Source of the DNA: Candidatus Spyradenecus sp.
Lineage (GTDB): Bacteria; Verrucomicrobiota; Verrucomicrobiia; Opitutales; UBA953
NCBI GenBank assembly: GCA_045535075.1
Contig: JAZSKX010000005.1
Coordinates: forward strand, 1 to 64,000
DNA length: 64,000 nucleotides
Reading direction: 5' to 3'
Under the pieces are notes generated by a model. It was not told the origin of the DNA, did not search any database, and worked only from the letters and a program-made list of their open reading frames with translations. The position numbers and the translations under genes were made by a program. Shown piece by piece: positions 2,258 to 51,625 of the stretch (its first letter is position 1; each line of letters opens with the position of its first letter).

Positions 2258-2285
2258 AGCTTAGAGATTAAGGCTTAAAGCTTAA
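2258..2285. repeat. Heptamer tandem repeat (AGCTTAG AGATTAA GGCTTAA AGCTTAA)
   Basis: Four units right after the fba stop codon. Confidence 0.6.
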
Positions 2286-2323
2286 AAAGCGTTCCCGTGA
2301 GAAATTTGCGGGAACGCTTTTTT
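2284..2323 (+). terminator. Intrinsic terminator of fba formed by an inverted motif pair
   Basis: AAAAAGCGTTCCCGTGA-GAAAT-TTGCGGGAACGCTTTTTT; mismatches are G-U wobbles on the + strand. Confidence 0.9.
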
Positions 2324-2469
2324 ACTTGTGAAAATCTGTATTCCCGGAACCAAAAAAATCTCGCGCCGGGGAACGCTCCGTTTGTAGAATCAATTTCACT
2401 TGAGAAATATTTAATATCGGGAATTCCATCACCGCATTCCGCTTTGTCCTAATTATTTTTGATAGAATC

Positions 2470-3645
2470 ATGTCCGCATCCACCCGAACACGCTTGCCCT
2501 GCTCCCGTCCGGACGTTCCCGTGAGCATGCATCGGACACCGAGCGGACAAATCGGGCTGACGGTTTTCCTGTCGGGGAATTGGTCGATTGCAGACGGTCT
2601 TTCGGACGATCGAACACTTCGGGAAGCATTCGAGGCACTCGCACCCGGAACACGCGCGGAAACGCTGTGTTTTGATTGCTCGCAACTTTCCGATTACGAC
2701 TCAAGTTTGATTTGTTATATCATTCGTTGCGCGTCGTTTTGCTCCGAACACGGCATTCGGTTTGGGAAAGAAACGCTTCCGGGAAACGCGGAAAAGCTCT
2801 TTGAGCTTTCCGTCGCCAACCGCCGCGGGATCGAAATACCGTGGGAACACGATATGGCATTGCTCGCCGTTATCGGACGTTGGGGCGAACGCATGTTTGC
2901 CAATACGGATCGCGCCTTGAAATTTCTCGGGGAAACGGCACTTGCGCTCAAAAATCTCTTCTGCGGGAAAGCACGTTTCCGCCGGCGGGATTGCCTGTAT
3001 TTTATTCAGGATTGCGGCATCAACGCGCTCCCGATTATCACGCTGATTTCCTTCATCACGGGCATGATTCTCGCGTACATCGGCGCGATGCAACTCCGCC
3101 AATTCGGAGCGATTATTTACGTCGCAAGCCTGATTGCCATTGCGATGGTGCGGGAAATGGGCGTTATCATGACAAGTGTCATCATGTGCGGGCGCACGGG
3201 CTCCGCTTTCGCCGCACAAATCGGAAGTATGCAGGCAAGCGAAGAAATTTCGGCTCTGCGCGTGCTCGCCGTCAATCCCGTGGAATATTTGGTGCTCCCG
3301 CGAATTATTGCGCTTACGCTGATGATGCCGCTGCTCACGCTTTACTCAGATTTTGTCGGCATACTCGGCGGTTTTTTCGTCATGGGTTCCATGGATGTTA
3401 CGCTGGAACAATATTGGCGGCAAATCGCCCTCACGCTTGACATGAGCCACGTCCTTTCCGGAGTTATCAAAAGCGTTTTCTTCGGATTTATGGTTGCATG
3501 GGCCGGATGCTATCGCGGAATGGTCTCGGGGAAAAGCTCGCTGGCAGTCGGCGATGCCGCGACATCCGCCGCCGTGCTCGGCATGGTACTCATCGTTATC
3601 GGCGACGGCATTTTCGCCGTTCTTTTCAACGCAATCGGATTTTAA
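2470..3645 (+). CDS. MlaE-family ABC permease with N-terminal STAS-like domain
   Basis: REMGVIMTSVIMCGRTGSAFAAQIGSM...EEISAL, YLVLPR; N-terminal FDCSQLSDYDSS STAS-like segment. Confidence 0.9.
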   Translation: MSASTRTRLPCSRPDVPVSMHRTPSGQIGLTVFLSGNWSIADGLSDDRTLREAFEALAPGTRAETLCFDCSQLSDYDSSLICYIIRCASFCSEHGIRFGKETLPGNAEKLFELSVANRRGIEIPWEHDMALLAVIGRWGERMFANTDRALKFLGETALALKNLFCGKARFRRRDCLYFIQDCGINALPIITLISFITGMILAYIGAMQLRQFGAIIYVASLIAIAMVREMGVIMTSVIMCGRTGSAFAAQIGSMQASEEISALRVLAVNPVEYLVLPRIIALTLMMPLLTLYSDFVGILGGFFVMGSMDVTLEQYWRQIALTLDMSHVLSGVIKSVFFGFMVAWAGCYRGMVSGKSSLAVGDAATSAAVLGMVLIVIGDGIFAVLFNAIGF

Positions 3646-3649
3646 TCAC

Positions 3650-4405
3650 ATGGAAAAACTGCCTCCCATCGAAGTTTGCGACTTGAAAATGGCATACGGC
3701 GCGCATGTCGTCATGGAAGATTTAAACTTCCGGATTAACGCGGGAGAAATTTTCATCATCATGGGCGGTAGCGGTTGCGGGAAATCGACCTTGCTTCGTC
3801 ATCTTATCGGCCTACAAACGCCCGCCGCCGGAGAAATTCGCCTCTTCGGCGACGATCTCAATCGCAGTACTCCGCGGGAACGCGAAGCGTTGTTGCGTCG
3901 CTTCGGGGTCATGTATCAGGGCGGCGCGCTATGGTCTTCGATGACGCTCCTCGAAAACGTCATGCTTCCGCTCGAAGAATACACGCGTTTAAATTCGCGG
4001 GAACGCGCCGAGCTCGCGCGCTACAAACTTGCGCTCGTCGGGCTGCACGGCTTCGAAAATTATTACCCGGCGGAAATTTCTGGCGGCATGGCAAAGCGCG
4101 CATCGATTGCACGCGCCATTGCGCTCGACCCGGAAATTCTTTTTTTTGACGAACCGGGCGCCGGGCTGGATCCGCTCAGCTCCAAGCTTCTCGACGATCT
4201 GACACTAAACATCCGCGATTCCCTCGGCACAACCGTCGTCATCGTTACTCACGAGCTCAACAGTATTTTTGCAATCGGCGACCGCGCAATTTTTCTCGAC
4301 GCGTCCAAGAAAACCGTCGGAGCAATCGGCAATCCGCGGGAGCTCCGCGCCAATCCGCCCTCGCCTGCAATCCGTGAATTTCTCACCCGTGCGGGAACAC
4401 TGTAA
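3650..4405 (+). CDS. MlaF-like ABC transporter ATP-binding protein
   Basis: GGSGCGKST Walker A, ISGGM signature, FFDEP; start reassigned to ATG 3650 (MEKLPP). Confidence 0.92.
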   Translation: MEKLPPIEVCDLKMAYGAHVVMEDLNFRINAGEIFIIMGGSGCGKSTLLRHLIGLQTPAAGEIRLFGDDLNRSTPREREALLRRFGVMYQGGALWSSMTLLENVMLPLEEYTRLNSRERAELARYKLALVGLHGFENYYPAEISGGMAKRASIARAIALDPEILFFDEPGAGLDPLSSKLLDDLTLNIRDSLGTTVVIVTHELNSIFAIGDRAIFLDASKKTVGAIGNPRELRANPPSPAIREFLTRAGTL

Positions 4406-4424
4406 ATAAATTCAAACGACAAAT

Positions 4425-5417
4425 ATGAGTAAACCCGTTAATTATTCGCTCATCGGCATATTCGTTCTCGGCGCGATTGCGCTACTCATCGCGAGCATTA
4501 TCGCGTTCAGTTCGCTTACGTTTAATAAGAAATCCGTTCCGATGATTGTCTATCTGACGGATTCGCTCAACGGATTGAGCCTGAACTCCGACGTTAAATT
4601 TAAAGGCGTTAAGATCGGGAAAGTTCAGAAGATTCTTCTGAGCATCCAGGACAACGCACAATCCGTCCGCTCAATTCCGGTTGTCATCGAAATCGAAGAC
4701 CGATTCATGAACGGCGAAAACAACGCCGGAGAAATGCGCTTTCGCCTCGAAAAAAGTATTCAGCAGGGACTGCGAGCGCGCATTCAACAATCCAATCTGC
4801 TCACGGGAATACTCTACATCGAGTTGGATTATTTTCCCGGGACTCCTGCAATTTTGCGCGGGAACGGCGAAGGCGAATATCCGGAAATCCCGACTATTCC
4901 GTCGAACATGTCGCAAATGCTCAACTCGGTCGCCCAAATTCTTCAAAACCTCTCACAGGTTGATTTCAGGAATTTTTCCGAACGGCTCAAGGAAGCCGCC
5001 GACAGCCTGAACGCCAGCATTGATGCCATCGAATTTGAGAAAATAAACGACAACATCGTTCAAGCCAGCGAAGCGGCGAAAAAAATTCTCACCGATCCGC
5101 AACTCAGCCAAATCATCGACAATATCAACCGCATCACCCGGGACGTTTCGATGCTCTCCCAAAAAATCGAAACAAATTTCGATCCGATTCAAAAAGATTT
5201 TCACGCAACCACGGAAGAACTCCGCAGTTCGCTTGAACAAATAAATAAGACGATGCTTGCGTTCCGTTCCGCGATGACGGGAACGCACGGCTCCGTCGAG
5301 CAGGACTTCGCCGACGCGCTCGACCAAATCAACGAAGCGGCGCGCTCCGTCCGTGCCCTTTCCGATTATCTGCGCCGCCACCCGGACGCCGTCCTATTCG
5401 GCAACGACGAACAATAA
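4425..5417 (+). CDS. MlaD/PqiB-family MCE-domain protein
   Basis: N-terminal TM, GLSLNSDVKFKGVKIGKV, GLRARI...LLTGILYIELD, C-terminal helix ending YLRRHPDAVLFG. Confidence 0.9.
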   Translation: MSKPVNYSLIGIFVLGAIALLIASIIAFSSLTFNKKSVPMIVYLTDSLNGLSLNSDVKFKGVKIGKVQKILLSIQDNAQSVRSIPVVIEIEDRFMNGENNAGEMRFRLEKSIQQGLRARIQQSNLLTGILYIELDYFPGTPAILRGNGEGEYPEIPTIPSNMSQMLNSVAQILQNLSQVDFRNFSERLKEAADSLNASIDAIEFEKINDNIVQASEAAKKILTDPQLSQIIDNINRITRDVSMLSQKIETNFDPIQKDFHATTEELRSSLEQINKTMLAFRSAMTGTHGSVEQDFADALDQINEAARSVRALSDYLRRHPDAVLFGNDEQ

Positions 5418-5435
5418 TTTTACGCCCATCCGAAC

Positions 5436-5993
5436 ATGAAAAAAAATGCACTTCTTTTCGCACTGCTTCCCGCAGTCATTTTCTCCGCCTGCACGACACC
5501 AAGCGCACCGACAACCATGCGCTACACGCTCTCGCCGCTCGCCGCAGAAAACACCGCCGCCGCACCTGCCGTTCCCTTTGCCCGCATCGCCGTTCCCGCG
5601 TACATCGATACAGAGCAAATCGTAACCCGCAAAAGCGAAAACATCGTCATTCTCAACGAAACGCGCATTTGGGCAGAGCCGCTTGCACGCACAATTCAAC
5701 GCACGCTCCCGGTCCTGGTCTCCGGCAAGCTCCAAGGAAAAAAACTCCGAGACTTCGAAAAGATTTCCGTTTTCATCGACCGCCTCGACGGAACTCTCGG
5801 CGAAGCAATCACCGTCTCCGCCCAAATTATCGTGTCGCGACTGACGGAAACCGCGACCGAAAGCGAATCGATACGCTTCGCGCAACGCATTCCCGTTCCC
5901 GAAGCGGACGATGCTTACGCCGCCTACGCTCAAGCCATTTCAACCGCTGTCGCCGAGCTTGCCCAAGCCGTCGCCGACCAAGTTTCGGAATAA
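5436..5993 (+). CDS. PqiC-like ABC auxiliary lipoprotein
   Basis: Lipobox FSAC, VPAYID, WAEPL motif; follows the MCE gene. Confidence 0.85.
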   Translation: MKKNALLFALLPAVIFSACTTPSAPTTMRYTLSPLAAENTAAAPAVPFARIAVPAYIDTEQIVTRKSENIVILNETRIWAEPLARTIQRTLPVLVSGKLQGKKLRDFEKISVFIDRLDGTLGEAITVSAQIIVSRLTETATESESIRFAQRIPVPEADDAYAAYAQAISTAVAELAQAVADQVSE

Positions 5994-5999
5994 GCAATC

Positions 6000-6650
6000 G
6001 TGCCCCGAAAACACCGTTGCCTTCGATTTCTCGTTCCCGTGCTCGCAATTCTCATATTGCTTGCGGGAACGATTTTTGCCTGCAACAGCCTTGTTGCACA
6101 AAGTCGGGAATTCGTTTTTGAAAACCCGGAAGACATTCCCGTGATGCCGACGGCACTCGTCCTCGGAACCGCCCCGACGACACGCGACGGCGCAACCAAC
6201 ATTTATTTCGCCGCACGTATCGCCGCGACCAAAGCACTTTTTGACGCGGGAAAAATCGAGCGCATCCTCGTCTCCGGCGACAATCGTTCGCACGATTACA
6301 ACGAGCCGCAGGCAATGAAAGACGCCCTTGTCGCTCGCGGCGTTCCCGCAGAAAAAATCTACTGCGACTATGCAGGATTGCGCACGCTGGATTCCGTCGT
6401 CCGTGCAAAAGAAATTTTCGGACAGGAAAAAGTGGTTGTCGTTTCCCAAGCGTTTCACTGCGAACGTGCCGTATTTCTTGCGCGTTCCCGCGGCATCGAG
6501 GCTGTCGGATTCGTCGCCGCCAACAATCCGCCGCTTTTCTACAAAATCAAACTTTGGATGCGGGAACGCCTCGCACGCGTCGTCGCTGTTTCCGACATCA
6601 TTTTTATGCGTTCGCCCAAACATCTCGGCGATCCCGTATCCATAAACTAA
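6000..6650 (+). CDS. SanA/YdcF (DUF218) family protein
   Basis: ILVSGDN...YNEP, DYAGLRTLDSVVRAKEIFG, SQAFHCERA, RERLARV. Confidence 0.9.
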   Translation: MPRKHRCLRFLVPVLAILILLAGTIFACNSLVAQSREFVFENPEDIPVMPTALVLGTAPTTRDGATNIYFAARIAATKALFDAGKIERILVSGDNRSHDYNEPQAMKDALVARGVPAEKIYCDYAGLRTLDSVVRAKEIFGQEKVVVVSQAFHCERAVFLARSRGIEAVGFVAANNPPLFYKIKLWMRERLARVVAVSDIIFMRSPKHLGDPVSIN

Positions 6651-6692
6651 ATACACAAGTACCAACCCTCAACTTCAGAATTCCCGAACTTT

Positions 6693-7175
6693 ATGATTCA
6701 ACCTACACCGACAGACGATCCGAACATGCTCTACAGCACGGCAACCGGCGAAATTTGCCTCGATTTGCCCTCGCCCTACATCCCGCACAAGGAAACCGGG
6801 CTCCTGCATCTGCCGCGCTTTATCGCCAAAATCCGAAAGCATCTCGCCGGAAAACTCCCGAAATCTTACCAACGCAATTTCTGCAAAGGGTTCGACAGAT
6901 TTCTCTGCCTCCACCTCGGAATCGACCCGCAAAGCGTTGTCGAAGCCGTTCGTGAATGCGGCGACGATAATGCCGCGCTGGATGCCAAGTTGCTCGAAAT
7001 TTTCCCGAAAGATTTACGCGTTGCAAAATGGAATCGCGAATGCGTCCAAAAAGGAATGAGCGAAATGGGGAAAGAAGCCCTTGACGATGCCAAGCGGAAA
7101 ATGGATGCGCTCGATCGAACCGACATTATCTCCTTTGCGGACATGATTGACTTTGACGAACAACGCATCCCGTAA
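6693..7175 (+). CDS. Conserved hypothetical protein, DUF5069-like
   Basis: LPSPY...GLLHLPRFIAKIR...GFDRFLC.HLGI...IDFDE pattern, recognised from memory. Confidence 0.6.
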   Translation: MIQPTPTDDPNMLYSTATGEICLDLPSPYIPHKETGLLHLPRFIAKIRKHLAGKLPKSYQRNFCKGFDRFLCLHLGIDPQSVVEAVRECGDDNAALDAKLLEIFPKDLRVAKWNRECVQKGMSEMGKEALDDAKRKMDALDRTDIISFADMIDFDEQRIP

Positions 7176-7280
7176 AAAATTGAACAAGTTGACGACTTTC
7201 CTCGGGAAAGCGGCTTCCGTTTCATGCGAAAATTTAATCGCGGGAACGCTTTCCCAAGGAGAAATCGGCGCAACGTCACC

Positions 7281-8354
7281 TCAAGCCCCGGCACTTTCGC
7301 AATTCGGACGCGCGATAATCCCGGGGAAAGGCTCTTCGGGGAAGAGCAGATCCGAGCGATTGCCCGCAATCAAAAAACGCTCGGCAATTTTCAGAATTTC
7401 GAGCGGAGTTCCAGCCCGCCGCGCGGCGTAAAGAAATGCGCCTTCCGCGTCCACGCCCGTTCCGATAAAATTTAAAAATTTTTTCATTCGTGCGGCGACG
7501 CGTTCAGGTTTGTCTCCGGGAAGAGCGACACATTTTTCCAGCGCGCAAATATACTCAAACACGTCGCCGAGGCGCGGCTTGAAAATATCATTCCGCCCTT
7601 CCCGTGCTTCGCGCAAACTTCGGAAAATCCAGGGATTACGAATCGCGTGGCGCCCGATCATCCAACCGGCACACTGCGTTTTTTCTCGCACGCGAAATGC
7701 TTTTCCGACGGAAGAAATTTCTCCGTTCGCAATCACCGGACAAGCGGATTCCCTTACGGCAAAAGCGATTGCGTCATAATCAACCGGCGTGCGATAGAGC
7801 CCGCGCACCGTACGCCCGTGAACGGCAAGCAGATCGACGCGGTTTTCCCGAATCAGCTCCAACAAGCGCGGGAACGGAGTCGCATCCTCGAATCCGACGC
7901 GACATTTCACGGTAAACATTTTTCCGAACTCCGAGCAGAGCTCCCGCAGCGCAACGAGAATTTTTTCAATTTTCGGTAAATCTCGGAGTAATCCGCCGCC
8001 GACATTTTTTTTGAAAACTTTCGGAGCCGGGCAGCCAAGATTCAAATCAATTCCTGCAATCCCGAAACGACTCAATGCCTGCCGCGCGATACGCACGAGA
8101 GCCGGAACATCTTCGCCGATCAGCTGAAGAAACAACGGCGTTCCCGCAGGTGAATTTTCGAGGCAATCGACAATATCCTCATCAATGAGCGAAGTTGAAT
8201 GTACCCGCAAAAATTCCGTAACAAAATAATCGGGCGTGCTTCGAAGCGTTCCCGCAAGCAAGCGCATGAACGGAAGAGTTGTAACGTCCTGCATCGGAGC
8301 AAGCGAAGTCACGGGAACGCCGCTTGCGAAAGCCTCGTCAAGAGCCGCCATCAC
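7281..8354 (-). CDS. tRNA-dihydrouridine synthase (Dus family)
   Basis: LAPM, IDLNLGCP, GGGLL, VHGRT, VIANGEI, MIGR...NPWIF. Confidence 0.92.
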   Translation of the reverse strand: MMAALDEAFASGVPVTSLAPMQDVTTLPFMRLLAGTLRSTPDYFVTEFLRVHSTSLIDEDIVDCLENSPAGTPLFLQLIGEDVPALVRIARQALSRFGIAGIDLNLGCPAPKVFKKNVGGGLLRDLPKIEKILVALRELCSEFGKMFTVKCRVGFEDATPFPRLLELIRENRVDLLAVHGRTVRGLYRTPVDYDAIAFAVRESACPVIANGEISSVGKAFRVREKTQCAGWMIGRHAIRNPWIFRSLREAREGRNDIFKPRLGDVFEYICALEKCVALPGDKPERVAARMKKFLNFIGTGVDAEGAFLYAARRAGTPLEILKIAERFLIAGNRSDLLFPEEPFPGIIARPNCESAGA

Positions 8355-8824
8355 GCGGCAAAGCCTTTGTTTTTACTTTCCCGTTTTTGCGCACGTTTGA
8401 ACAACGGCGTTACATCTTCCGCCGCCTCGTAAACCTTACGGGAAATAAACACGTTCGCCCGCCACAAAAAGGACTGCACGATCGCATCCGAAGGGCGAGC
8501 ATCTACCTCAAGGCGTTTGGTACCGAGCTCATTTTGCATCACATAAACCAAGCGCGCGAAATACACTCCGTCACGATAATCCGTGATGAAAACAGCCTCC
8601 AAGCGAATCTCAAATCCAAGGCAAACGGCGTGAAGCAACTCGTAAGTTTGCGGACGCGGGAACGGTTTTCCCTGCATGGCGCGCGCCGAGATTTCCGCAA
8701 AGGCGGCATCCGTTTGCATAAGCAAAATTTTTCCTTCGCAAACAAGAAAGACCGCTGTCGAATCTTTCATCGGGCAAACGCTTACGTGCCTCAACTCGAC
8801 GAAATCCTTGTCCATGAAAATCAA
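8351..8824 (-). CDS. Bifunctional nuclease family protein (DUF151)
   Basis: RPQTYELL, GVYFARL, VDARPSDAI; 4-nt overlap with dus. Confidence 0.88.
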   Translation of the reverse strand: MIFMDKDFVELRHVSVCPMKDSTAVFLVCEGKILLMQTDAAFAEISARAMQGKPFPRPQTYELLHAVCLGFEIRLEAVFITDYRDGVYFARLVYVMQNELGTKRLEVDARPSDAIVQSFLWRANVFISRKVYEAAEDVTPLFKRAQKRESKNKGFAA

Positions 8825-8836
8825 AATTCAAAAAAC

Positions 8837-9724
8837 TCAAACGCGGCGGCGACCACTCGGCTTGCGTTCGTTCTTTTTGTCGTTTTTGTTCCCGCGCGTC
8901 TTCTTCCCGTCATCGTCTTTCGGCGGCGGCGGCTTCGGAACCACGTTTGCCTGACGGAAATCAAGGCGGATTGTTCCGTCTTCGCCGGCTTTTTGCGACG
9001 GCATGACAAAGAGCACGGATCGCGTCATCTCACGAAACGTTCCGGAATTTGCATAAATAACTTTCCATCCGTTCGCTTCCTTCGCAGAAGGCACGGCGGC
9101 GCGAATATTCATGACGGTTCGGGATTTTACCGGTTTCGTAATCCACTGGCCGCCGCTCGGCAATTCCACAACCTGCGGCGGCATTGTCGCCGTCTCGCCT
9201 TTTTTCGCTTTCGGGGCAAGCCCGAACTGAATCGGCGTCTTTGTCATATTCAAAACCATCATCGACCCGACGGGGAATTTTTTTTCGTCGAAATTAAAAA
9301 CAATCGGTTTTGCGCTCAAAAGATTTCCCGGAATCAACACGCCAACGTCCCGCAAACCTGCGGGAATACTGATTTTCGCGTAGGGAACATATTCCAAATC
9401 CGCGCCGCGAACACCCTGCTCTTTGCGCTGGAGCATTTCCTGCTCACTCGCCTTTCGGTAAAGCACGAAAGGAAGCGGACCGCGATATTCGTATGCACGG
9501 ACAAACGCCATCACCGTAATAAAAAACGGTTTATACTCGCGCCCGACTTTATAAAAAAGCGCTTCCGTATTTTTAGCGGAATCCGGGCTGGCGTACGAAC
9601 AACGCAAAACTACGGAAACGTTTTCGGATTCTTCGACGCTTGTGCGTTGCTGGGCATCGGCCTCAACGACCGTTCCCGTAAAAGCGAGTAAACAGGCGGC
9701 AAAAAGGGAAATGTGCTTTAACAT
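8837..9724 (-). CDS. Hypothetical secreted protein with Pro-rich and basic C-terminus
   Basis: Signal-peptide-like N-terminus; 295-aa ORF co-oriented with neighbours. Confidence 0.7.
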   Translation of the reverse strand: MLKHISLFAACLLAFTGTVVEADAQQRTSVEESENVSVVLRCSYASPDSAKNTEALFYKVGREYKPFFITVMAFVRAYEYRGPLPFVLYRKASEQEMLQRKEQGVRGADLEYVPYAKISIPAGLRDVGVLIPGNLLSAKPIVFNFDEKKFPVGSMMVLNMTKTPIQFGLAPKAKKGETATMPPQVVELPSGGQWITKPVKSRTVMNIRAAVPSAKEANGWKVIYANSGTFREMTRSVLFVMPSQKAGEDGTIRLDFRQANVVPKPPPPKDDDGKKTRGNKNDKKNERKPSGRRRV

Positions 9725-9802
9725 ATTGCTAGGGGATTCGATTTTCCAAGTCTACGCACCGTCCCGACAGCGGGCAAGGACGAAAACGGCAACGTTTCCG
9801 TG

Positions 9803-10786
9803 CTACCGTCCCGCTTCCTGCGGGAACAGAAAGTCGGCAAAAATCATTCGATGGTCGCTTGCATAAACAAGTTTGCCGCCCGGAAGCGTCTTTCTTGCAA
9901 ACGCCTCATCGGCAATGCGCTCGCTATTCGGAAGTTTAAATTTCTCCGCTTCCCGTGAAATAAAGAAGTGATCAAACACGCGTTTTCCGTTCATTTTCAG
10001 ATAGCGATAAGTCCATGTTTCTCCCGACGAATCGCGCAAATTCAAACGCCTCATTCCGCAGTTTTTCGTAATCCTACGAACCGGCTCACTCTCCGGAAAA
10101 TCATTAAAATCGCCAAGCAAAATGCAGTATTCGCCGCCCGAGCGATCCAGTTCTTTCCCGACATAATCCGCCTCGGCGAGGCGCTCGGCGGCGCATTCCG
10201 GATCTTCGGCGCTTCGCGAAAGCTTACTTTTCAGATGAACCGTAAAAATTCTCAACGGTTTCGTTCCCGCCGGAATCTGCACGCCGAGCAATCCGCGCGA
10301 CATTATTTCCTCTTCAGGAAAACGGAAAACCGTTTCGAACGGAAGTCGCGAAATAATTCCGATTCGACGGTGTGTATCGCGTCCGTTCAAGCAAACGCGA
10401 TGCGGGAACGCCAATCCGGTTTCCCGCGCCAAATCACCCGCAAGTTCATCCAAATGAGCTTCGTCACCGACTTCCTGAAGCGCTACGACATCGGGGCGAA
10501 TCACATCGAAAAGTTTCCACATTGCCGCGCGCTCGGCTCGCGGTTTCGCCCAACGCCGCTTAAATCTTCCGTCCGCAGTATAGCGATTTGTACTTAAATA
10601 ATTTTTACAATTCATTGAAGCAATGCGTAGCGTTCCCGTAGGTTTTTCGGGAATTTTTCCGATATCAACAATCTCGGGAAGCGGCGAAAAATCAGGCTCC
10701 GCGAAGCGGACGGAAAGTAAACAAAAAAATATTGCGCTCGCCGTGAAGGCAAACGCAATAAAAACGTTTTTTGACTGCAAGCGCAT
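9803..10786 (-). CDS. Endonuclease/exonuclease/phosphatase (EEP) family protein, N-terminal membrane anchor
   Basis: ASMN, DVVALQEV, VHLKS, LGDFND, FDHFF, ASDH. Confidence 0.9.
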   Translation of the reverse strand: MRLQSKNVFIAFAFTASAIFFCLLSVRFAEPDFSPLPEIVDIGKIPEKPTGTLRIASMNCKNYLSTNRYTADGRFKRRWAKPRAERAAMWKLFDVIRPDVVALQEVGDEAHLDELAGDLARETGLAFPHRVCLNGRDTHRRIGIISRLPFETVFRFPEEEIMSRGLLGVQIPAGTKPLRIFTVHLKSKLSRSAEDPECAAERLAEADYVGKELDRSGGEYCILLGDFNDFPESEPVRRITKNCGMRRLNLRDSSGETWTYRYLKMNGKRVFDHFFISREAEKFKLPNSERIADEAFARKTLPGGKLVYASDHRMIFADFLFPQEAGR

Positions 10787-10802
10787 TCGGGGCGAATAGC
10801 AA

Positions 10803-11585: not shown

Positions 11586-11588
11586 GAT

Positions 11589-40644: not shown

Positions 40645-40651
40645 CGTCGCA

Positions 40652-40909: not shown

Positions 40910-40928
40910 AGCTTGTTGTTTTGTTTTC

Positions 40929-42196: not shown

Positions 42197-42212
42197 TCCG
42201 GATTTCCCGCAC

Positions 42213-42260: not shown

Positions 42261-42339
42261 GGAATCGGAGAAACTTAAAAACTAAGAAAGCTAAAACGTT
42301 TAGTAATGCTATTTTTGTGCATTCTACGCACCTAAGTTT

Positions 42340-44526: not shown

Positions 44527-44560
44527 GTTAGCGGTGTTTTCGTGTTTGTTAAATTTTTGT

Positions 44561-45097
44561 TCACTCGCGAGCGAGTAGCCAAATCACATCGGAAAGCCGG
44601 TTCAGATAGCGCGCGGGAAGCGGACGAAGCACTTCGTCGTGTTCCCGCAGAGCAATGACATCGCGTTCGGCGCGGCGGCAAACGGCACGGGCGACATGAA
44701 GCGCAGCCTGATACGGCGACGTTCCCGCAAGAATCCAGCCGGTAAAGCGGCGTTCCTCAGTTTCAAGCTCATCCACCAAATCATCAAGACGCGCCAAATC
44801 CGTTTCCTCCAAATGCGGGATTTTGGACGCAAGATATTTTTCCTGATCTTCATTAACGACACCGACTTCGCCCATGAGAGAGATCAGGTCGAGTTGGATG
44901 CGTTGCAAAATTTCCCGAACGGCAGAATCTTCGCAAAAAGCTTTTGCCAAACCGAGATTGGAAGAAAGCTCATCGATACTGCCGTTTGCGACGACACGCG
45001 GATGGGTTTTCCGAAGTCGCTTTCCGTAAAGTTGCGTCGTCAACCCGTCGTCGCCGGTGCGTGTTGCGATAGAATTTTTGGCCTTAGATTTTCGCAT
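44561..45097 (-). CDS. ATP:cob(I)alamin adenosyltransferase (PduO-type)
   Basis: TRTGDDG.T, GSIDELSS, RAVCRRAER, YLNRLSD. Confidence 0.9.
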   Translation of the reverse strand: MRKSKAKNSIATRTGDDGLTTQLYGKRLRKTHPRVVANGSIDELSSNLGLAKAFCEDSAVREILQRIQLDLISLMGEVGVVNEDQEKYLASKIPHLEETDLARLDDLVDELETEERRFTGWILAGTSPYQAALHVARAVCRRAERDVIALREHDEVLRPLPARYLNRLSDVIWLLARE

Positions 45098-45105
45098 GAG
45101 AGTTT

Positions 45106-46422
45106 TTATTGAGCAATTCGGCACGCGAGTAAAACCGCGATTGCGAGATTTGCAAGCGCCGTGATACCGAGCCCCGTTGAAGCGAGCCTGCGGAAGGCTC
45201 CGCGACCGAATGCAAGCGTGAGCCCGAGTTTGACAAGCGTATTGGAAAACACGCCGATCATAATTCCGAGCGCGGCAACGGCAAAGCTCAGCGTTCCCGC
45301 GTCCGCAAACTCCGAAGCCTGATTCGCCATTGACATGACAAGCGCCGCCGTATCGGGAATCCCGGAGAAGAAGCTGACGGCAACGAATCCGGTGCCGAGA
45401 TCATTGCCGCTTTTTTCAATAAGGAAAACCACCAAAGCGTAAAGCAACGCAAATTTGACGGCATTGGGCAAATCGAGCGGATTTTTTACTGCGGGGACTT
45501 TTCCTTCCGCCAACTTTCCGTAGCGCAAAGCAATCAGCCCGCAGACCAAAACGCAAACACCCAGCAAAACGCCCCACATCCACAGCGTTGAAATTGCGAA
45601 TTTTAAATTAAGCAAGAAAGTCAAAACAACCAGACGAAGCGCCATTGAAAGTTGCGCGAGTAAAATCGCCATGGCAAAAGCGCCGCCGTTTTCGTGCTCG
45701 GTTTCGGATCGCCGGCTAAACGCAAGCGTAACCGCCGTGCTTGATGCCAAGCCGCCGATGAATCCCGTTACCGCCGCTCCCGCGCGGGCGCCAAGCCAGC
45801 GCATCGCGATGTAGCCGATAAAGTTGACTCCCGAAATCAGCACGACCATCAGCCACGTCGTATAAGGATTGAAAATACCCCAAAGCGTTTGATTCGGAAC
45901 AAGCGGAAGCAAGACGCCCGTTAGACAAGCAAACTGCAATCCGGCGCGAATATCCGTTCCCGTCAGCGACGAACTCCATTTGTCCGTCCACGCACGCAAT
46001 CCGAGCGTAACGGCAAGCACGATTGCGAGCATAACGGCATATTTTTCGAGTCCGATTCCCATGAGCGCTCCCGCACAAAAAACCATCAGTGCGGACGCCG
46101 CAGTCGTCAGCCCGAACGTTGCCTGCAACATTGTTTTTTCGCGTTGGCGTTCCTTGCCGCCGCGAATCAGGTAGGCGACCGTCGAAAGCCCGAGTACGGA
46201 AAGGCTCGCGAGTACGAAATGTTCGAATCCGAGACGTTCCATTTGCACGGAAATAAAACCGAGCACGGCCCAAAGCGCGAAAGTACGCATGCCGGCTGTC
46301 GTATTGTTCCCGCCGCGCCACTGGCGGACAAGACCGACGAGCCCGCCGATGCAAACCGTGACGAGCAACATCCAGCCGTTTTGCGGCGTCATCAAAGATT
46401 CCGGGGTAATGGGGGTTAACAT
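45106..46422 (-). CDS. MgtC/SapB and DUF4010 membrane protein
   Basis: AGMRTF, GLTTAA, LPLVPN, W.MVVLISGV.F.GY, GGLASSTAVT. Confidence 0.85.
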   Translation of the reverse strand: MLTPITPESLMTPQNGWMLLVTVCIGGLVGLVRQWRGGNNTTAGMRTFALWAVLGFISVQMERLGFEHFVLASLSVLGLSTVAYLIRGGKERQREKTMLQATFGLTTAASALMVFCAGALMGIGLEKYAVMLAIVLAVTLGLRAWTDKWSSSLTGTDIRAGLQFACLTGVLLPLVPNQTLWGIFNPYTTWLMVVLISGVNFIGYIAMRWLGARAGAAVTGFIGGLASSTAVTLAFSRRSETEHENGGAFAMAILLAQLSMALRLVVLTFLLNLKFAISTLWMWGVLLGVCVLVCGLIALRYGKLAEGKVPAVKNPLDLPNAVKFALLYALVVFLIEKSGNDLGTGFVAVSFFSGIPDTAALVMSMANQASEFADAGTLSFAVAALGIMIGVFSNTLVKLGLTLAFGRGAFRRLASTGLGITALANLAIAVLLACRIAQ

Positions 46423-46512
46423 ACCCGAAGATTCTAGGAAATACGCCCTGTTCTGCGAGATTTAAAATCGAAATTTAACGCGGATAAATTATTCGTTCCC
46501 GCTCTTTCCCCG

Positions 46513-46992
46513 TCAATTCATCAGCCAAATTGCGCAAGTCAAATATCCGGCAAAACAAACCCAAATGAAATAAGGAATTTGCAAATACGCCGCGACGGAA
46601 TTGATTTTCTTATATTCGACGATGGTTTTTAAAATCAGAATCAGCAAAAACAGCAACCACGCAAAGGCAAAGCCGAAACTGCGAAATCCGAAGAAAATAA
46701 AACACCACGAAAAATTCACAAAAAGACTCAACGCATAAATTCCGAGCGCGCACTTTCGGGTTGCCCGATTTTCCGGATTGCGTTCCCGCCAAATCATCGC
46801 CGCGCTAACACCCATCAGAGCATATAACAGCGTCCAAACAAGCGGGAACACTGCCGCCGGCGGTGCCAACGGCGGGACAAGAATCGTCGCATAAAGCGAA
46901 CGCATTCCGTCCGAAGTAAAATAAGCCGCCAGCGCTCCTACGCCCATGGCAATCAACACGGATACGAGATAAGTTTTTATTTGATCTTTCAT
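46513..46992 (-). CDS. TspO/MBR tryptophan-rich sensory protein
   Basis: PPLAPP..VFPLVWTLLY.LMG, NFSW..IFF, PY..W..FA.YL. Confidence 0.92.
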   Translation of the reverse strand: MKDQIKTYLVSVLIAMGVGALAAYFTSDGMRSLYATILVPPLAPPAAVFPLVWTLLYALMGVSAAMIWRERNPENRATRKCALGIYALSLFVNFSWCFIFFGFRSFGFAFAWLLFLLILILKTIVEYKKINSVAAYLQIPYFIWVCFAGYLTCAIWLMN

Positions 46993-47094
46993 CCGCTAAT
47001 AAGCGTCGCCGAAAACACTTTTCAATTCGTAAAAATCGTTCAAATTCCGCGCCAGTTCCTTGAACATGCAGGCTTTTGCTAAAAGAAAGGCACG

Positions 47095-47135
47095 AAAAAG
47101 CCCGCAATCCCTGTATTTAAGCGGAATTGCGGGCT
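47095..47135 (-). terminator. Terminator downstream of tRNA-Pro (not motif-based)
   Basis: AGCCCGCAAT...ATTGCGGGCT followed by TTTT on the minus strand. Confidence 0.75.
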
Positions 47136-47150
47136 AATCTAACACATGAA

Positions 47151-47228
<78 letters not shown>

Positions 47229-47289
47229 ACACCTAAGAAATGTAAACTCAAATAAATCGTTTTTTGAAAACAAGCGCAAGCTTTTTCTT

Positions 47290-47320
47290 AAAAAAAGTTC
47301 CCGCAAGGTTTCGCGGGAAC
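47290..47320. repeat. Inverted motif pair in the divergent tRNA-Pro/pyrC spacer
   Basis: AAAAAAAGTTCCCGC-AAGGTTTC-GCGGGAAC. Confidence 0.7.
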
Positions 47321-47458
47321 GGACAATCTTTGTAGGAAGCGCTATTTCGCGGAGGATGCCGAAATCGACACATCCACTTTGTCTTGCCCTAAAGAAAAGC
47401 CTCTCCCGCTAATTTGCGGGCTTGCGGGAACGGGCTCAAAAGAGTTTCATTAGCAATC

Positions 47459-48475
47459 ATGCGAATTGAGATTGAGCAACCGCTTGACATGCACCTGCAT
47501 TTGCGCGACGGCGCGATGTGCCGCCTGACAACGCCGCTTTCTGCCGAATATTTTTCCGGCGCGGTGATTATGCCGAATCTTGTTCCGCCGGTAACGGATG
47601 TCGGGTCGATGAAATCTTATCGCGGGCGCATCCTCGAAGCCGCCGGCGAACACGCGCAAACGTTTTCGCCGCTCATGACGCTGTTTTTCAAAAACCAAAC
47701 GCGCGAAGAACTTGAGGCGGCTCGACAACAGGAGTTTTTCTTCGGACTGAAACTCTACCCGGCGGGAGCGACAACGAATTCCGACGGCGGCGTCACGGAT
47801 TTCGGCGAAGCGGAAAAAACGTTTCGTGCGATGGAGGAACTCGGCATTCCCCTGCTCGTCCACGGCGAAAGCCACGGATTCGTGATGGATCGTGAAGCTG
47901 AATTTTTGCCGACATACCGCCGTTTGGCGCAGGCGTTCCCGCGCCTGAAAATTTGCATGGAACACATCACGACAGCGGCGGCGCTAACGCTTCTTGACGA
48001 ATTTGAAAATGTTTTTGCAACCGTCACGCTTCAGCATCTTTTGATTACGCTCGACGATGTCGCCGGCGGAATGTTGCGCCCGCACCTTTTCTGCAAACCG
48101 ATTGCCAAGCGTCCGGAAGACCGTTCGGCTCTTTTGGCGGCGGCGCTTTCGGGACATCCCAAGCTGATGTTCGGAAGCGATTCGGCGCCGCATCCGCGCC
48201 ACAAAAAAGAATGTTGCGGTTGCGCGGCAGGTGTTTTTACGGCTCCGATTGCCCTTCCCGCTTTAGCGGATTTGTTTGCAAAAAACAACGCACTCGACAA
48301 GTTGCAGAATTTCGTCGGCGGGAACGCACGGCGTATTTATCAATTAAATACAGCTCCGAAAAAAATCGTTTTAGAAGACACGCCCGGTTCCGTTCCCGCC
48401 GTTTATGAAGGACACGGAGAGCATGTCGTTCCGATGTTTGCGGGAGAAAATCTCGCCTGGAGCGTTGTTCGATAA
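47459..48475 (+). CDS. pyrC: Dihydroorotase (homodimeric type)
   Basis: [44 protein letters not shown]; start MRIEIE. Confidence 0.95.
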
Positions 48476-48492
48476 ATCTTTATTTTTCTGCC

Positions 48493-49257
48493 ATGAAACG
48501 GACAACTAAAACGCTTCGAGACGCCAAAGGGAAATCGCAAATCGTTTGCATTACCGCCTACGACGCGGTAACGGCACGGCTCGCCGACGCGGCGGATGTC
48601 GATGTTATTCTCATCGGCGACTCCGTCGGCAATGTTGTTCTCGGATTTGAAAATACCGTTCCCGTGACGCAAGACATGATGGCGCACCACACGGCGGCAG
48701 TCGCGCGCGCACGCCCGAATGCGTTGATTGCAGCGGACATTCCGTTCGGTATCGCGCACGGCGATTTTTCCGACTTATTAAAATTCTGTATGCGACTGAT
48801 GCAGGAATGTGGCGCCGAAGCGGTAAAAATCGAAGGCGGCGCGGAAATGGCGCCGACGATTGCTCGGTTGACGGCAGCGGGCGTTCCCGTCTGGGCGCAC
48901 ATCGGCTTGCAAGGGCAATGCGTTTTTCAGGAAGGCGGTTACCGTAAATACGGAAAAACGGAACGCGAATATGCGGAAATTCTTGCCGCGGCAAAAGCGC
49001 ACGAAGCCGCGGGAGCGTTTGCCCTGCTCGTCGAAATGATGGTGCCGGAATTAGCCGCAGAGATTACGCGTAGCGTTTCGATTCCCGCAATCGGTATCGG
49101 AGCCGGGAAGGACTGCGACGGACAAATCATCGTCATGCACGATATTCTCGGGCTTTCGCCGAAAAAACCGTCTTTTGCAAAAGTTTACGCCGATTTATTC
49201 TCGCAGGCGGTTTCAGCAATTTCCGCCTACGGGAACGCCGTTCGGGAAAAGCAATAA
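48493..49257 (+). CDS. panB: 3-methyl-2-oxobutanoate hydroxymethyltransferase
   Basis: TAYD, IGDS, AVKIEGG, IGIGAG..CDGQ. Confidence 0.96.
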   Translation: MKRTTKTLRDAKGKSQIVCITAYDAVTARLADAADVDVILIGDSVGNVVLGFENTVPVTQDMMAHHTAAVARARPNALIAADIPFGIAHGDFSDLLKFCMRLMQECGAEAVKIEGGAEMAPTIARLTAAGVPVWAHIGLQGQCVFQEGGYRKYGKTEREYAEILAAAKAHEAAGAFALLVEMMVPELAAEITRSVSIPAIGIGAGKDCDGQIIVMHDILGLSPKKPSFAKVYADLFSQAVSAISAYGNAVREKQ

Positions 49258-49372
49258 AAGAACCCTCAAATTGCACGGACAAGCACAATTGCATTCGTAT
49301 TTTTAAGACAAAGCTTCGTCTCTCCCGTTAAAATTCGTATGAATTTGTGTCCATTCGTGGTAAAAATAAGTT

Positions 49373-50380
49373 ATGAATATCGTAATTCTCGGTGCCGGAG
49401 CTTGGGGCTCCGCGATGGCAATTCACCTCAATCGTTGCGGACAGCGCGTAACGCTGATTCCGCGCCGACTTGAACAGGCGCTGGAAATTGCCGGTTCCCG
49501 CGAAAACAAAATTTATCTTCCCGAAATCGCGTTCCCGCAGGATATTCAAATTGCCTCAAATGCCGCACCCGCGCTTTTGGAATGCGACGTGCTTGTTTTC
49601 GCCTGTCCGTCAAAGGCGTTGCGCGCCACTGCCGAAAACGTAAAAACGATTTTGGAAAATAATCCGCGCAAACCGCTCGCGTTGCTGGTGCTCTGCAAAG
49701 GCTTGGAAGCTGACACTTTTCTCACGCCGGAAGCCGTACTGTCTCAAGTCCTTCCGGGCATTCCCACGGGAACGCTTTCCGGACCGACCAACGCAGCGGA
49801 AGTTGCCGCCGGGCTCCCTGTCGCCGTTGTTTTTGCCAGCAATTGCGACGATGCCACGGCGCAAAAAATCCAGCAGGAATTCAGCAATGCCACTTTCCGT
49901 GTTTATCGCTCCTCGGATGTCGTCGGCGTCGAACTCGGCGGTTCGCTCAAAAATATTTATGCGATTGCGGCGGGAATTTGCGACGGCATGAAACTCGGCT
50001 CCAACGCACGCGCGTCATTGCTGACGCGGGCGCTCACGGAAATGTCGCGCCTGATTGCTTCGTTCGGCGGGAACGCGGAAACCGTCCAGGGGCTTAGCGG
50101 CATGGGAGATTTAATTGCGACGGCGACGGCGGATTGGTCGCGCAACCGCCAATTCGGAATGAAAATCGGGCGGGAAAACATTCGCGCCGCCATGCAAAAA
50201 ATGTCTTCGGGAACGAGTATCGTCGAAGGTTATTACGCCACAAAAAACTTTTACGAATACGCTAAAAGCAAAAAGATTTCCGCGCCTATTTTGAAGTGCG
50301 TTTACGCCATCGTTTACCAAGACGTTGATCCGCGGGACGCAATCGACGCATTGATGACGCGCGACTTAAAATCCGAATAA
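49373..50380 (+). CDS. gpsA: NAD(P)H-dependent glycerol-3-phosphate dehydrogenase
   Basis: GAGAWG, CKG.E, SGPT.A, GVELGGSLKN, GMGDL, SRN. Confidence 0.96.
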   Translation: MNIVILGAGAWGSAMAIHLNRCGQRVTLIPRRLEQALEIAGSRENKIYLPEIAFPQDIQIASNAAPALLECDVLVFACPSKALRATAENVKTILENNPRKPLALLVLCKGLEADTFLTPEAVLSQVLPGIPTGTLSGPTNAAEVAAGLPVAVVFASNCDDATAQKIQQEFSNATFRVYRSSDVVGVELGGSLKNIYAIAAGICDGMKLGSNARASLLTRALTEMSRLIASFGGNAETVQGLSGMGDLIATATADWSRNRQFGMKIGRENIRAAMQKMSSGTSIVEGYYATKNFYEYAKSKKISAPILKCVYAIVYQDVDPRDAIDALMTRDLKSE

Positions 50381-50392
50381 TTTAAAAACTCT

Positions 50393-50947
50393 ATGGCACG
50401 CGACAACGCACACTACAACCGTGATATTGCGATTCTAAAACACGACGAATCCGAGATTCCCGCGCTCATCGAAGCAGCGGGAGCCAATCCGCTGATTCTC
50501 GTCCTCGACGGCATTCAGGATCCGCATAATCTCGGCGCAATTTTGCGCACGGCAGATTGCGCCGGCGTCAGCTTTGTAATTATAACGAAACGACGTTCGG
50601 CACCTGTCACCGAAACGGTTCGCCGTATCGCATGCGGCGGTGCAGAAAGCGTTCCGATTGTTCTCGCAAACAATCTGCGCAACGCGTTGGAAAAGCTGAA
50701 AGCCTGCGGCGTTTGGGTCGCGGGAACGTCCGATCACAAAGCCAGCCAATCCATTTACAACGCGAACCTGAAAGGCGCGCTCGCAATTGTCATGGGCGCG
50801 GAAGGCGACGGCATTCGCCATCTCACGGGAGAAACTTGTGATTTTCTCCTGCGTATTCCGATGCTCGGGAGCGTCCCCTGCCTGAACGTCTCCGTCGCGA
50901 CAGGCGTTTGCCTTTTCGAAGCGCTCCGCCAACGCGGCATTCGTTAA
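50393..50947 (+). CDS. TrmH/RlmB-like SPOUT rRNA methyltransferase (catalytic domain only)
   Basis: LDGIQDPHNLGAILR, MGAEG.G, IPM.G.V..LNVSVA. Confidence 0.88.
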   Translation: MARDNAHYNRDIAILKHDESEIPALIEAAGANPLILVLDGIQDPHNLGAILRTADCAGVSFVIITKRRSAPVTETVRRIACGGAESVPIVLANNLRNALEKLKACGVWVAGTSDHKASQSIYNANLKGALAIVMGAEGDGIRHLTGETCDFLLRIPMLGSVPCLNVSVATGVCLFEALRQRGIR

Positions 50948-50994
50948 AAAAACATGTAAATTTTTTCTAATAACACCATTAATCACTATCAATT

Positions 50995-51570
50995 ATGGCT
51001 ACACTTAAAGGCACAGAAACAGAGAAAAACCTCCTCAAGGCTTTTGCCGGTGAATCACAAGCGCGTATGCGCTATACGTACTTTGCGAGCAAAGCAAAGA
51101 AAGACGGTTTCGTCCAAATTGCCGACGTCTTTGAAGAAACCGCAAATCAGGAAAAGGAACACGCCAAACGCTTTTTCAAATTCCTCGAAGGCGGATGCCT
51201 CGAAATTACGGCATCGTTCCCGGCAGGCGTAATCGCTTCGACGGAAGCCAATCTCGAAGCTTCCGCAAACGGCGAAAACGAAGAATGGTCGGAAATGTAT
51301 CCGGAATTTGCCGACATCGCCGACAAGGAAGGCTTTGCGGAAATCGCCGAAGTCTTCCGCAATGTATCCGTTGCCGAAAAACAACACGAAAAACGCTTCC
51401 GCGCGCTTTTGGGAAATATTCGCAAAGGCGAAGTATTTAAAAAGAACGGCAAGGTTTGGTGGCGCTGCCGCAACTGCGGTTTTATTTACGAAGCCGCCGA
51501 AGCGCCGATTAAATGCCCGGCTTGCGACCACCCGCAGGCACACTTTGAAGTTCTTGCCGAGAACTGGTAA
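50995..51570 (+). CDS. rbr: Rubrerythrin
   Basis: AFAGESQA, EKEHA, C-terminal CRNCG...CPAC. Confidence 0.96.
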   Translation: MATLKGTETEKNLLKAFAGESQARMRYTYFASKAKKDGFVQIADVFEETANQEKEHAKRFFKFLEGGCLEITASFPAGVIASTEANLEASANGENEEWSEMYPEFADIADKEGFAEIAEVFRNVSVAEKQHEKRFRALLGNIRKGEVFKKNGKVWWRCRNCGFIYEAAEAPIKCPACDHPQAHFEVLAENW

Positions 51571-51586
51571 AGCGACCATCGGCGAC

Positions 51587-51625
51587 AAAACCGTTCCCGC
51601 GGATTTCTCTGCGGGAACGGTTTTT
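51587..51625 (+). terminator. Terminator after rbr, inverted motif pair
   Basis: AAAACCGTTCCCGCGGA-TTTC-TCTGCGGGAACGGTTTTT. Confidence 0.9.

Follow-up and report, generated by a model that had tools for sequence, protein, structure and literature searches.

Ten hairpins in a 64,000-nt stretch of DNA (the window) from a genome of the Opitutales, here termed G000, are built from a single seven-nucleotide word. Why should the ends of so many genes share one stem, GTTCCCG…CGGGAAC, and why should its two arms come in a single order? According to a 3'-end atlas, terminator stems of fixed sequence occur in only five of 32 species, and in four of these the stems are uptake sequences, known from two families of Proteobacteria (PMC13714241). 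Here, we describe a computational analysis of the word in G000, in its motif-poor sister species G214 and in their relatives, and we weigh the forces that may have placed it at gene ends.

Results

Motif hairpins in the window

All ten hairpins are present at the positions given in Table 1, the GTTCCCG arm coming first in each, and every one folds on both strands (-13.9 to -24.2 kcal/mol; z -4.5 to -9.1). A first-pass annotation had assigned them to genes, and nine of the ten do come after a gene end; the hairpin at 47290-47320 follows none. It had also described the inner mismatches at fba, hom, hppA and rbr as G-U pairs on the strand of the upstream gene, which is correct, and that strand folds better by 3.1-4.4 kcal/mol. 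Folding is about equal on the two strands at pnp and rpsO. Contigs from RNA runs of a single study end at two hairpins (pnp and usp) and span the one at rbr, contigs of this kind being unable to show transcript ends.

Table 1. Motif hairpins and dispersed copies of the word in the window
Feature	Position	Strand	Observation
Predicted intrinsic terminator, fba	2284..2323	+	Arms at 2291 and 2309; + strand has two G-U pairs; fold -18.6 (+) vs -14.8 (-)
Predicted terminator, hom	17466..17502	-	U-tract and G-U pair on -; fold -21.4 vs -17.0
Predicted bidirectional terminator, dnaJ (+) / APH-family phosphotransferase (-)	23814..23853	.	Folds on both strands
Predicted terminator, hppA	27607..27645	+	G-U pair on +; fold -21.6 vs -18.3
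Predicted terminator, 3' of GH95 gene	33997..34028	+	U-tract shorter
Predicted terminator, pnp	38202..38241	-	One RNA-run contig stops inside, at 38237
Predicted terminator, rpsO	40605..40644	-	Folding about equal on the two strands
Predicted bidirectional terminator, usp (+) / 728-aa ORF (-)	42213..42260	.	RNA-run contig ends at 42209 and 42254
Motif hairpin in the divergent spacer of tRNA-Pro (-) and pyrC (+), between their 5' ends	47290..47320	-	U-tract on -; follows no gene end
Predicted bidirectional terminator, rbr (+) / DoxX gene (-)	51587..51625	.	Spanned by one RNA-run contig
Dispersed 7-mer copies, n=227 (113 GTTCCCG, 114 CGGGAAC)	230..63874	.	Most inside genes

Genome-wide terminators and the polarity of their stems

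The first-pass annotation had held that most intrinsic terminators carry the motif, always in one polarity. For the window the first statement stands (12 of the 14 gene ends at which a terminator is predicted). Genome-wide terminator prediction with a count of orientations, run as a check, reduced "most" to about half and "always" to 98%: among 381 predicted intrinsic terminators, 160 have the exact GTTCCCG…CGGGAAC stem and 201 have it when partial matches are included (42-53%), and a gene-blind scan found a motif stem in 126 of 295 distinct hairpins. The exceptions to polarity are few, at 160:3 among predicted terminators and 126:2 in the gene-blind scan. The share of terminators resembles that given for Neisseria gonorrhoeae, in which the DNA uptake sequence (DUS) motif is reported at 416 of 983 3' UTRs (PMC13714241).

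Intergenic pairs of this polarity with a gap of 5-14 nt number 144, against about 4 by chance, and the inner gap is sharply peaked at 12 nt (57 pairs). Both the peak and the 98% polarity are confined to intergenic pairs, and since close motif pairs inside genes show no polarity, the polarity would be imposed at the RNA level. Folding energy is ruled out as its cause, the energies being identical for both polarities, and a generic preference for a C-rich 5' arm (61:40 in G000, 86:30 in G214 and 17:10 in 250 kb of Escherichia coli) is too weak to account for 98%. Placing GTTCCCG first would set the G-C and C-G pairs of the consensus at the foot of the stem, next to the U-tract, with the A/G-rich end toward the loop, and may add to this weak generic lean.

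The first-pass annotation had further proposed that the hairpins act at the RNA level, a proposal borne out by their location 3' of stop codons, by their U-tracts and by their wobble pairs. Non-coding motif pairs begin within 60 bp of a stop codon in 142 of 168 cases, and among spacers of at least 40 bp a pair is present in 58 of the 145 between convergent genes, 95 of the 652 between tandem genes and 4 of the 199 between divergent genes. A U-rich tail follows 84 of the 93 tandem hairpins, in whose stems G-U outnumbers A-C on the sense strand by 47:7. These features predict that the motif hairpins are intrinsic terminators whose structure is selected on the transcribed strand.

The word across the genome

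Roughly 95% of the copies of the word lie outside terminator hairpins. It occurs 6,528 times in the genome, about once per 300 bases, with copies on either strand and in every reading frame, within the soft consensus (G)C-GTTCCCG-(Y)(R)(R); it is asymmetric rather than palindromic and lacks AT-rich flanks. Coding sequences hold 5,510 copies, compared with 858-975 after synonymous shuffling, divided 3,313 to 2,197 between the strands and found in all frames. These copies alter amino acids, and the tripeptides VPA and AGT are 5-fold enriched and more than 90% motif-encoded. Density is 3.35 per kb in the genome, 2.2 in the most conserved genes and 0.7-0.8 in prophages. Variants with one mismatch are for the most part enriched rather than depleted, and the intervals between copies are close to random (variance/mean 0.90-1.08 up to 2 kb). 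The leading strand carries 2,863 copies (47%) and the lagging strand 3,236, within the 43-57% range of control words, so there is no replichore skew. Motif positions 4 and 7 were considered as a critical binding core and set aside, because in the two main frames both fall on the third base of a codon. Viral contigs gave 120 hairpin matches, and four loci longer than 3 kb have more than one extra site per kb, the densest of which (L278) has host-like genes; the viral set was uninformative.

Distribution in relatives and decay in the sister species

The word is enriched in all 19 genomes of one Opitutales genus of gut Verrucomicrobia and in none of 98 other genomes of the family, and 357 kb from four genomes of sister genera contained no comparable word. 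Fifteen of the 19 are motif-rich and four, in two lineages, are motif-poor. At motif-rich loci the word is retained at 30-72% of sites and controls at 11-41%; at motif-poor loci the respective values are 22-29% and 25-29%. G214 has 0.98 sites per kb (3.35 in G000) and 66 motif hairpins in the gene-blind scan (126 in G000). For 133 motif-terminated gene ends, the G214 ortholog carries a motif pair 33 times, a single arm 13 times and a terminator free of the motif 54 times; the remaining 33 have none of these. There is no switch of dialect in G214, in which the top word is unchanged and variants at synonymous positions are rising. Thus, in the motif-poor sister, loss of the word proceeds at the neutral rate, whereas a terminator is usually kept. 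Hairpins lose the word when its genome-wide enrichment decays, and they therefore result from the force, whatever it is, behind the word.

This dependence bears on the earlier claim that the hairpins independently support an uptake model. The pattern does fit DUS and the uptake signal sequence (USS) better than Chi or HIP1; the independence is lost, in that hairpin use follows the genome-wide drive and any strand-neutral force acting on DNA could fill the stems. Hairpin use is thus weak as independent evidence for uptake.

Uptake genes and the search for a driver

G000 encodes two PilB proteins, PilT, seven pilins, a secretin, ComEC, DprA, a ComF-like protein and ComM; six of the seven pilins, compared with G214 only, are net acidic. 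ComP (PF16732) was found in none of five genomes, and ComEA was not found. Pilus ATPases and pilins are kept in all four motif-poor genomes, in which ComEC and the ComF-like protein are open frames; the latter two are also present in nearly all motif-free relatives. No competence gene tracks motif density, and loss of competence genes was rejected as the cause of the motif-poor state, no such loss being seen.

A search for drivers listed 260 of 1,542 G000 genes without a match in 2.04 Mb of G214, which is an overcount (G214 comF, for example, lies on contig C69, outside the compared sequence). Three candidates were rejected. An MmeI-type enzyme is patchy, occurring in 10 of 19 genomes that include the motif-poor G263 and G264. 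A gene that we take, by its resemblance, to be TfoX-like has no Pfam match; it is present in 10 of 15 motif-rich and none of four motif-poor genomes, but alignment did not find it in the other five motif-rich genomes, and so it is not the sole driver. RecBCD was discarded because RecC is open in all four motif-poor genomes and replichore skew is absent.

Gene exchange between species

With a silent-site distance below 0.25 to a distant motif-rich species as the threshold, five core genes of G000 are near-identical at silent sites to such species (6 of 168 comparisons), compared with 0 of 168 for G214. The signal comes from the first comparison set (G000 6 of 112, G214 0 of 112), and 56 further comparisons with metagenome loci gave none for either genome. 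The signal was seen in one of 49 comparisons among motif-rich pairs and in none of 35 for poor-rich pairs; pflB is likewise shared by two other motif-rich genomes (silent-site distance 0.18 vs 0.50). This near-identity lends modest additional support to a reading in terms of uptake. Shared habitat or transduction could lie behind so small a signal, as might assembly chimerism in G000 behind transferred alleles such as tex; against chimerism stand only the fact that each gene has a different partner species and the sharing of pflB by two other genomes.

Discussion

Our preferred explanation, held with modest confidence, is that a genome-wide force acting on DNA has filled the stems of predicted terminators with a genus-specific word, and that this force is most likely the preferential uptake and recombination of word-bearing DNA. 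Its two parts differ in strength: terminators have very probably been co-opted by a DNA-level drive, and this drive is probably uptake bias, as in Neisseria and Haemophilus. Stems need pairing rather than particular letters and would take in the word at little cost, a pair of copies each time. The force would be sequence-biased natural transformation by way of the type IV pilus, secretin, ComEC, ComF, DprA and ComM, with the word read by a putative receptor other than ComP.

The traits of the word match those described for USS and DUS (PMC7811141, PMC13714241, PMC2346458). USS are described as depleted in new DNA and in constrained genes, which molecular drive can explain, and as having a density of about 1.0 per kb (PMC7811141); one orientation is given as commoner in reading frames, with no genome-wide orientation bias (PMC2346458). 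The word likewise is depleted in prophages and constrained genes and shows the orientation pattern of those accounts, and its polar terminator pairs have a counterpart in the 10:2 ratio at the Pasteurellaceae loci examined. Unlike USS, whose predicted receptor in the Pasteurellaceae is PpdA/ComN (PMC12616744), the word is shorter (7-8 nt), is about 3-4 times denser (2.6-4.5 per kb, against the USS density in PMC7811141), has no AT-rich flanking segments, supplies no U-tract of its own and occurs where ComEA was not found. With the DUS of the Neisseriaceae it shares abundance as a non-palindromic word in genes and spacers and inverted pairs followed by U-tracts, but its sequence is unrelated, its core is 7-8 nt, its phylum is another, and ComP, the DUS receptor, was not found in the five genomes searched.

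A rather unlikely alternative is that a protein inside the cell binds or modifies DNA at the word, in chromosome organisation, repair or methylation-linked recombination, and that the word spread by selection or biased repair, terminators absorbing it as a by-product. The cyanobacterial HIP1 would be the model; it is described as 15-300-fold over-represented, conserved in all three frames and lost from, or altered in, certain lineages (PMC5861425), and as aiding transformation when methylated (10.1101/2024.09.10.611283). Density comparable to that of HIP1, use of all three frames, loss in some lineages and conservation beyond controls in motif-rich relatives agree with this alternative, as do competence genes that do not track the word and the failure to find a known receptor. 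However, the HIP1 sequence is palindromic and linked to two methylases, whereas the word is non-palindromic, near-randomly spaced and builds terminators, and the MmeI-type methylase, the only type surveyed across the genus, does not track it. The enrichment of most one-mismatch variants and the recent replacement of genes between species also argue against such a site.

It is improbable that the word is a Chi-like site at which the RecBCD of the genus protects and recombines incoming or broken DNA. The word is a non-palindromic 8-mer, RecC is present in 19 of 19 genomes of the genus and in 9 of 98 others of the family, and RecC of G000 is only 61% identical to that of the motif-poor sister, within the lowest 5% of genes. 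The leading-strand skew of a Chi site is absent, however (47:53), the terminator use is unlike Chi, and RecC is kept as an open frame where the word decays, its N-terminal part being 69-77% identical between G000 and G214. Relatives with strong RecC matches lack the word, and known Chi sites are far less dense.

Still less probable is a primary role in termination, by which an RNA-binding or processing factor would recognise the stem and coding copies would be secondary. Such a factor could explain why polarity and the 12-nt gap are restricted to intergenic pairs, and why motif terminators decay more slowly in G214 than single sites. It leaves unexplained the great majority of copies, which lie in codons of both strands and all frames at the cost of amino acid changes, and the terminators that persist in G214 without the word.

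Spread of the hairpins as REP or MITE copies by a RAYT or IS200-type transposase is scarcely credible: like REP/RAYT and NTS-Ssn repeats (PMC11893778) they are numerous, intergenic and near gene ends, with one polarity and a preferred spacing, and G000 has two Y1 transposases, but the palindromes that flank these two are different ones, an exact motif pair is absent from about 500 bp on each side, thousands of copies are single and embedded in codons, and the lack of a shared inner sequence (152 of 159 are distinct) refutes such copying, as the first-pass annotation had argued from the variable loops. Because of these differing inner sequences and the sense-strand wobbles, the motif hairpins behave as terminators rather than as REPs or MITEs.

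Returning to uptake bias, we tentatively suggest, from its likeness to DUS and USS, that the word may mark a third, independently evolved sequence-specific uptake system, the first outside the Proteobacteria, read by a putative receptor. Such a system would have rewritten the commonest tripeptides as well as half of the terminators and would let species at 72-80% amino-acid identity swap core genes, and the word would be decaying in two lineages that lost specificity. A third, unrelated word behaving alike in the Verrucomicrobiota would show that this pattern evolves repeatedly. In a genus with 15 motif-rich and four motif-poor genomes decay can be traced site by site, and comparative work within the genus can directly test molecular drive against function, a long-standing question, and seek a new DNA receptor.

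Results

The word and its distribution

The window corresponds to contig C15 in G000, a genome of 1.95 Mb (99.45% complete) that a comparison of DnaJ places among gut Opitutales, adjoining records named Ca. Spyradosoma. By DnaJ, six loci titled Spyradenecus, Sphaerochaetaceae, Enterobacteriaceae or Bacteroidaceae (L001, L003, L009, L014, L018 and L019) also lie inside this group, and their taxon labels are probably wrong. Genes of G000 were called with a custom codon model; 1,542 were kept, with approximate boundaries.

The word GTTCCCG occurs 6,528 times in G000 (3.35 per kb) versus 542 copies expected from the masked genome. Aligned copies give (G)C-GTTCCCG-(Y)(R)(R) as a soft consensus, and no AT-rich flanks were found around them. 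Coding DNA holds 5,510 copies versus 858-975 under synonymous shuffling, on either gene strand and in every frame, and the word encodes 827 of 905 VPA and 1,138 of 1,227 AGT, the most enriched tripeptides. The leading strand carries 47% of the copies, within the range of control words (43-57%), and few copies lie in two prophage regions or in the most conserved genes. Its 8-mer density is 2.6-4.5 per kb in 15 genomes of the genus (motif-rich), 0.29-0.67 in four (motif-poor) and 0.02-0.12 in 98 other genomes of the family. All 11 genus genomes scanned for the hairpin GTTCCCG...CGGGAAC have between 71 and 181 copies; of 240 other genomes in the order, 13 have one or two. Fifteen pairs with no gap lie in coding DNA of G000 and likely arise where two extended consensus words overlap.

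Features of the window and of related sequences
Feature	Location	Remarks
Motif hairpin away from a gene end	window 47290-47320	U-tract on - strand; between 5' ends of tRNA-Pro and pyrC
Zero-gap palindrome GTTCCCGCGGGAAC	window 23583-23596	inside dnaJ
AT-rich 7-base-periodic repeat	window 2264-2283 and 27587-27606	also genome-wide
Mu-like prophage regions (read from proteins)	G000 C16:183000-221000 and C8:21000-35200	0.7-0.8 motif copies per kb
Y1 transposases with own flanking palindromes	G000 C10:1-1100 and C14:6200-7500	arranged as a tandem array at C10
132-aa gene without Pfam match	L247:1498-1896, equal to G000 C1:100340-100738	in 10/15 motif-rich, 0/4 motif-poor genomes
RecC and RecB/RecD genes	G000 C2:9601-13044 and C9:34406-39327	

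Motif hairpins at gene ends

All ten hairpins that the first-pass annotation had reported in the window were found in place with GTTCCCG leading, and all fold far beyond shuffles on either strand; the hairpins are a genuine feature. As had been claimed, the fba, hom, hppA and rbr stems have inner mismatches that are G-U on the strand of the upstream gene, which is 3.1-4.4 kcal/mol more stable; at pnp and rpsO both strands fold about alike. In one study, RNA contigs stop at the hairpins of pnp and usp, where a DNA-like run goes on, but a single RNA contig spans the rbr hairpin; this is a weak hint of termination. A gene end precedes nine of the ten. The remaining hairpin, upstream of tRNA-Pro, could halt antisense pyrC transcripts.

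The claim that most terminators are built from the motif holds in the window, where a pair is used at 12 of 14 gene ends having a predicted terminator; genome-wide the share is about half. A motif-blind scan of 1,018 G000 gene ends, in which bidirectional terminators are entered twice, predicted 381 terminators. Both arms are exact with GTTCCCG first in 160, and 41 more match partially in this polarity (201 together); 3 exact and 8 partial cases have the opposite order. The word is missing from 169 terminators and present in 107 of the 133 strongest. The polarity said to be invariable is thus 98% (160:3 exact), and a gene-blind scan gave 126 forward versus 2 reversed among 295 distinct hairpins. 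Intergenic pairs with gaps of 5-14 nt number 144 forward and 7 reversed (about 4 of each expected); pairs within genes are without polarity (53 vs 58 at gaps of 5-29). Among spacers of at least 40 bp, a pair lies in 58 of the 145 convergent ones, in 95 of the 652 tandem ones and in 4 of the 199 divergent ones. Across 93 tandem hairpins, internal mismatches comprise 47 G-U, 7 A-C and 6 others, and 84 hairpins have a U-rich tail.

Just ahead of some terminators lies an AT-rich repeat of AAAGATT/AAAGCTT runs, which stands reversed ahead of start codons. G000 contains 29 copies of AAGATTAAAG, and the motif-poor sister genome G214 contains 427 of AGATTAAA versus 64 expected. Other words are repeated locally in Verrucomicrobiota loci (L020, L021, L023, L082-L086), and genome G029 has a GTAG-type repeat; these are probably local or REP-type.

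Origin of the polarity and of the hairpins

Folding energy is equal for the two arrangements. Motif-free terminators lean toward a C-rich 5' arm (G000 61:40, G214 86:30, E. coli 17:10 in 250 kb), a lean too weak to be the source of the 98% polarity. The inner arms carry on with the YRR preference, and GTTCCCG first may be the only order compatible with the extended word as well as with a G-C pair at the stem base beside the U-tract. The reading of the hairpins as mobile REP or MITE elements, against which variable loops had been cited, is ruled out by inner sequences that are distinct in 152 of 159 motif hairpins and by the flanks of the two Y1 transposases of G000, which hold unrelated palindromes but, in about 500 bp to either side, not a single exact motif pair; these elements are REPtron-like and unrelated to the word.

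Loss of the word in motif-poor relatives

Across 1,217 orthologs G214 retains 971 of 4,358 G000 sites (22%; controls 31%), and 1,334 of 1,685 one-base changes are synonymous. Gene order is heavily scrambled between the two although median protein identity is 88%, and part of the spacers compared at gene ends are therefore not homologous. At 133 motif-pair gene ends of G000, G214 has a pair at 33, one arm at 13, a motif-free terminator at 54 and none at 33; at 132 motif-free G000 gene ends it has a pair at 10. Terminator function outlives the word in G214. Motif-poor loci L001-L003 cluster with G000 (support 85/94), surrounded by motif-rich relatives; they retain 22-29% of G000 sites versus 25-29% for controls, and G000 shares 40 of the 43 sites that they carry. 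Twelve motif-rich loci retain 30-72% versus 11-41%.

Uptake machinery and gene exchange

G000 encodes two PilB, PilT, seven pilins, secretin, ComEC and DprA, together with a ComF-like gene scoring under the family cut-off and a gene that we take, by its signature, to be ComM; ComEA and ComP were searched for and not found, ComP in any of five genomes. Motif-poor genomes retain every competence gene tested. Each of the four (G214, on C19 and C39, G263, G264 and G265) carries one additional secretion ATPase and a set of 11 pilin-like genes; a similar number of pilin-like genes, 10-11, is seen in three motif-rich genomes. MmeI, RecBCD and the TfoX-like 132-aa gene each failed as driver of the word. 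RecC is present in 19 of 19 genus genomes versus 9 of 98 others of the family, and the DNA of the 132-aa gene is 91% identical to that of its counterparts from two distant motif-rich genomes, where neighbouring proteins are 63-74% identical.

Silent-site distances to distant motif-rich species fall below 0.25 in 6 of 112 gene comparisons for G000 versus 0 of 112 for G214. The six involve four partners (lysS 0.12, uvrA 0.12, tex 0.07, pflB 0.05 and 0.22, one gene 0.23), and the closeness of tex and uvrA runs the whole gene length. For pflB common to loci L013 and L016 the distance is 0.18 versus 0.50 for dnaJ. Such low distances count in favour of gene exchange. Against it count 56 further comparisons with motif-rich metagenome loci, from which loci with fewer than 1.5 sites per kb or fewer than two genes were dropped: they gave no close gene for G000 or G214. 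Among other genomes, 1 of 49 motif-rich pairs was close versus 0 of 35 pairs of a motif-poor with a motif-rich genome. Part of the loci in the exchange comparisons came from targeted searches.

Discussion

Uptake sequences build terminators in Neisseria and Pasteurellaceae (PMC13714241; PMC12616744); in N. gonorrhoeae the motif lies at 416 of the 983 3' UTRs (PMC13714241). H. influenzae has some 1,000 of them per Mb; they are sparse in DNA that is new or constrained, and molecular drive can give rise to them (PMC7811141). Within reading frames one orientation is preferred, with genome-wide skew absent (PMC2346458). The Spyradenecus word behaves alike in every sequence trait tested, but we do not class it with DUS/USS because ComP, the known receptor, is absent and uptake itself is here a prediction from sequence. 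In abundance it resembles the cyanobacterial repeat HIP1, and in asymmetry it differs (PMC5861425). Outside subscription papers and supplements, searches turned up no publication that describes this word or lineage in a terminator or uptake role.

The hairpins had been offered as independent support for an uptake model. They match it, but they follow the genome-wide word; because terminator function outlasts the word, they are a consequence of a force acting across the genome and do not prove uptake independently. We lean modestly toward the view that they are intrinsic terminators which a genus-specific DNA word has co-opted, and that biased DNA uptake would most likely be what drives this word.
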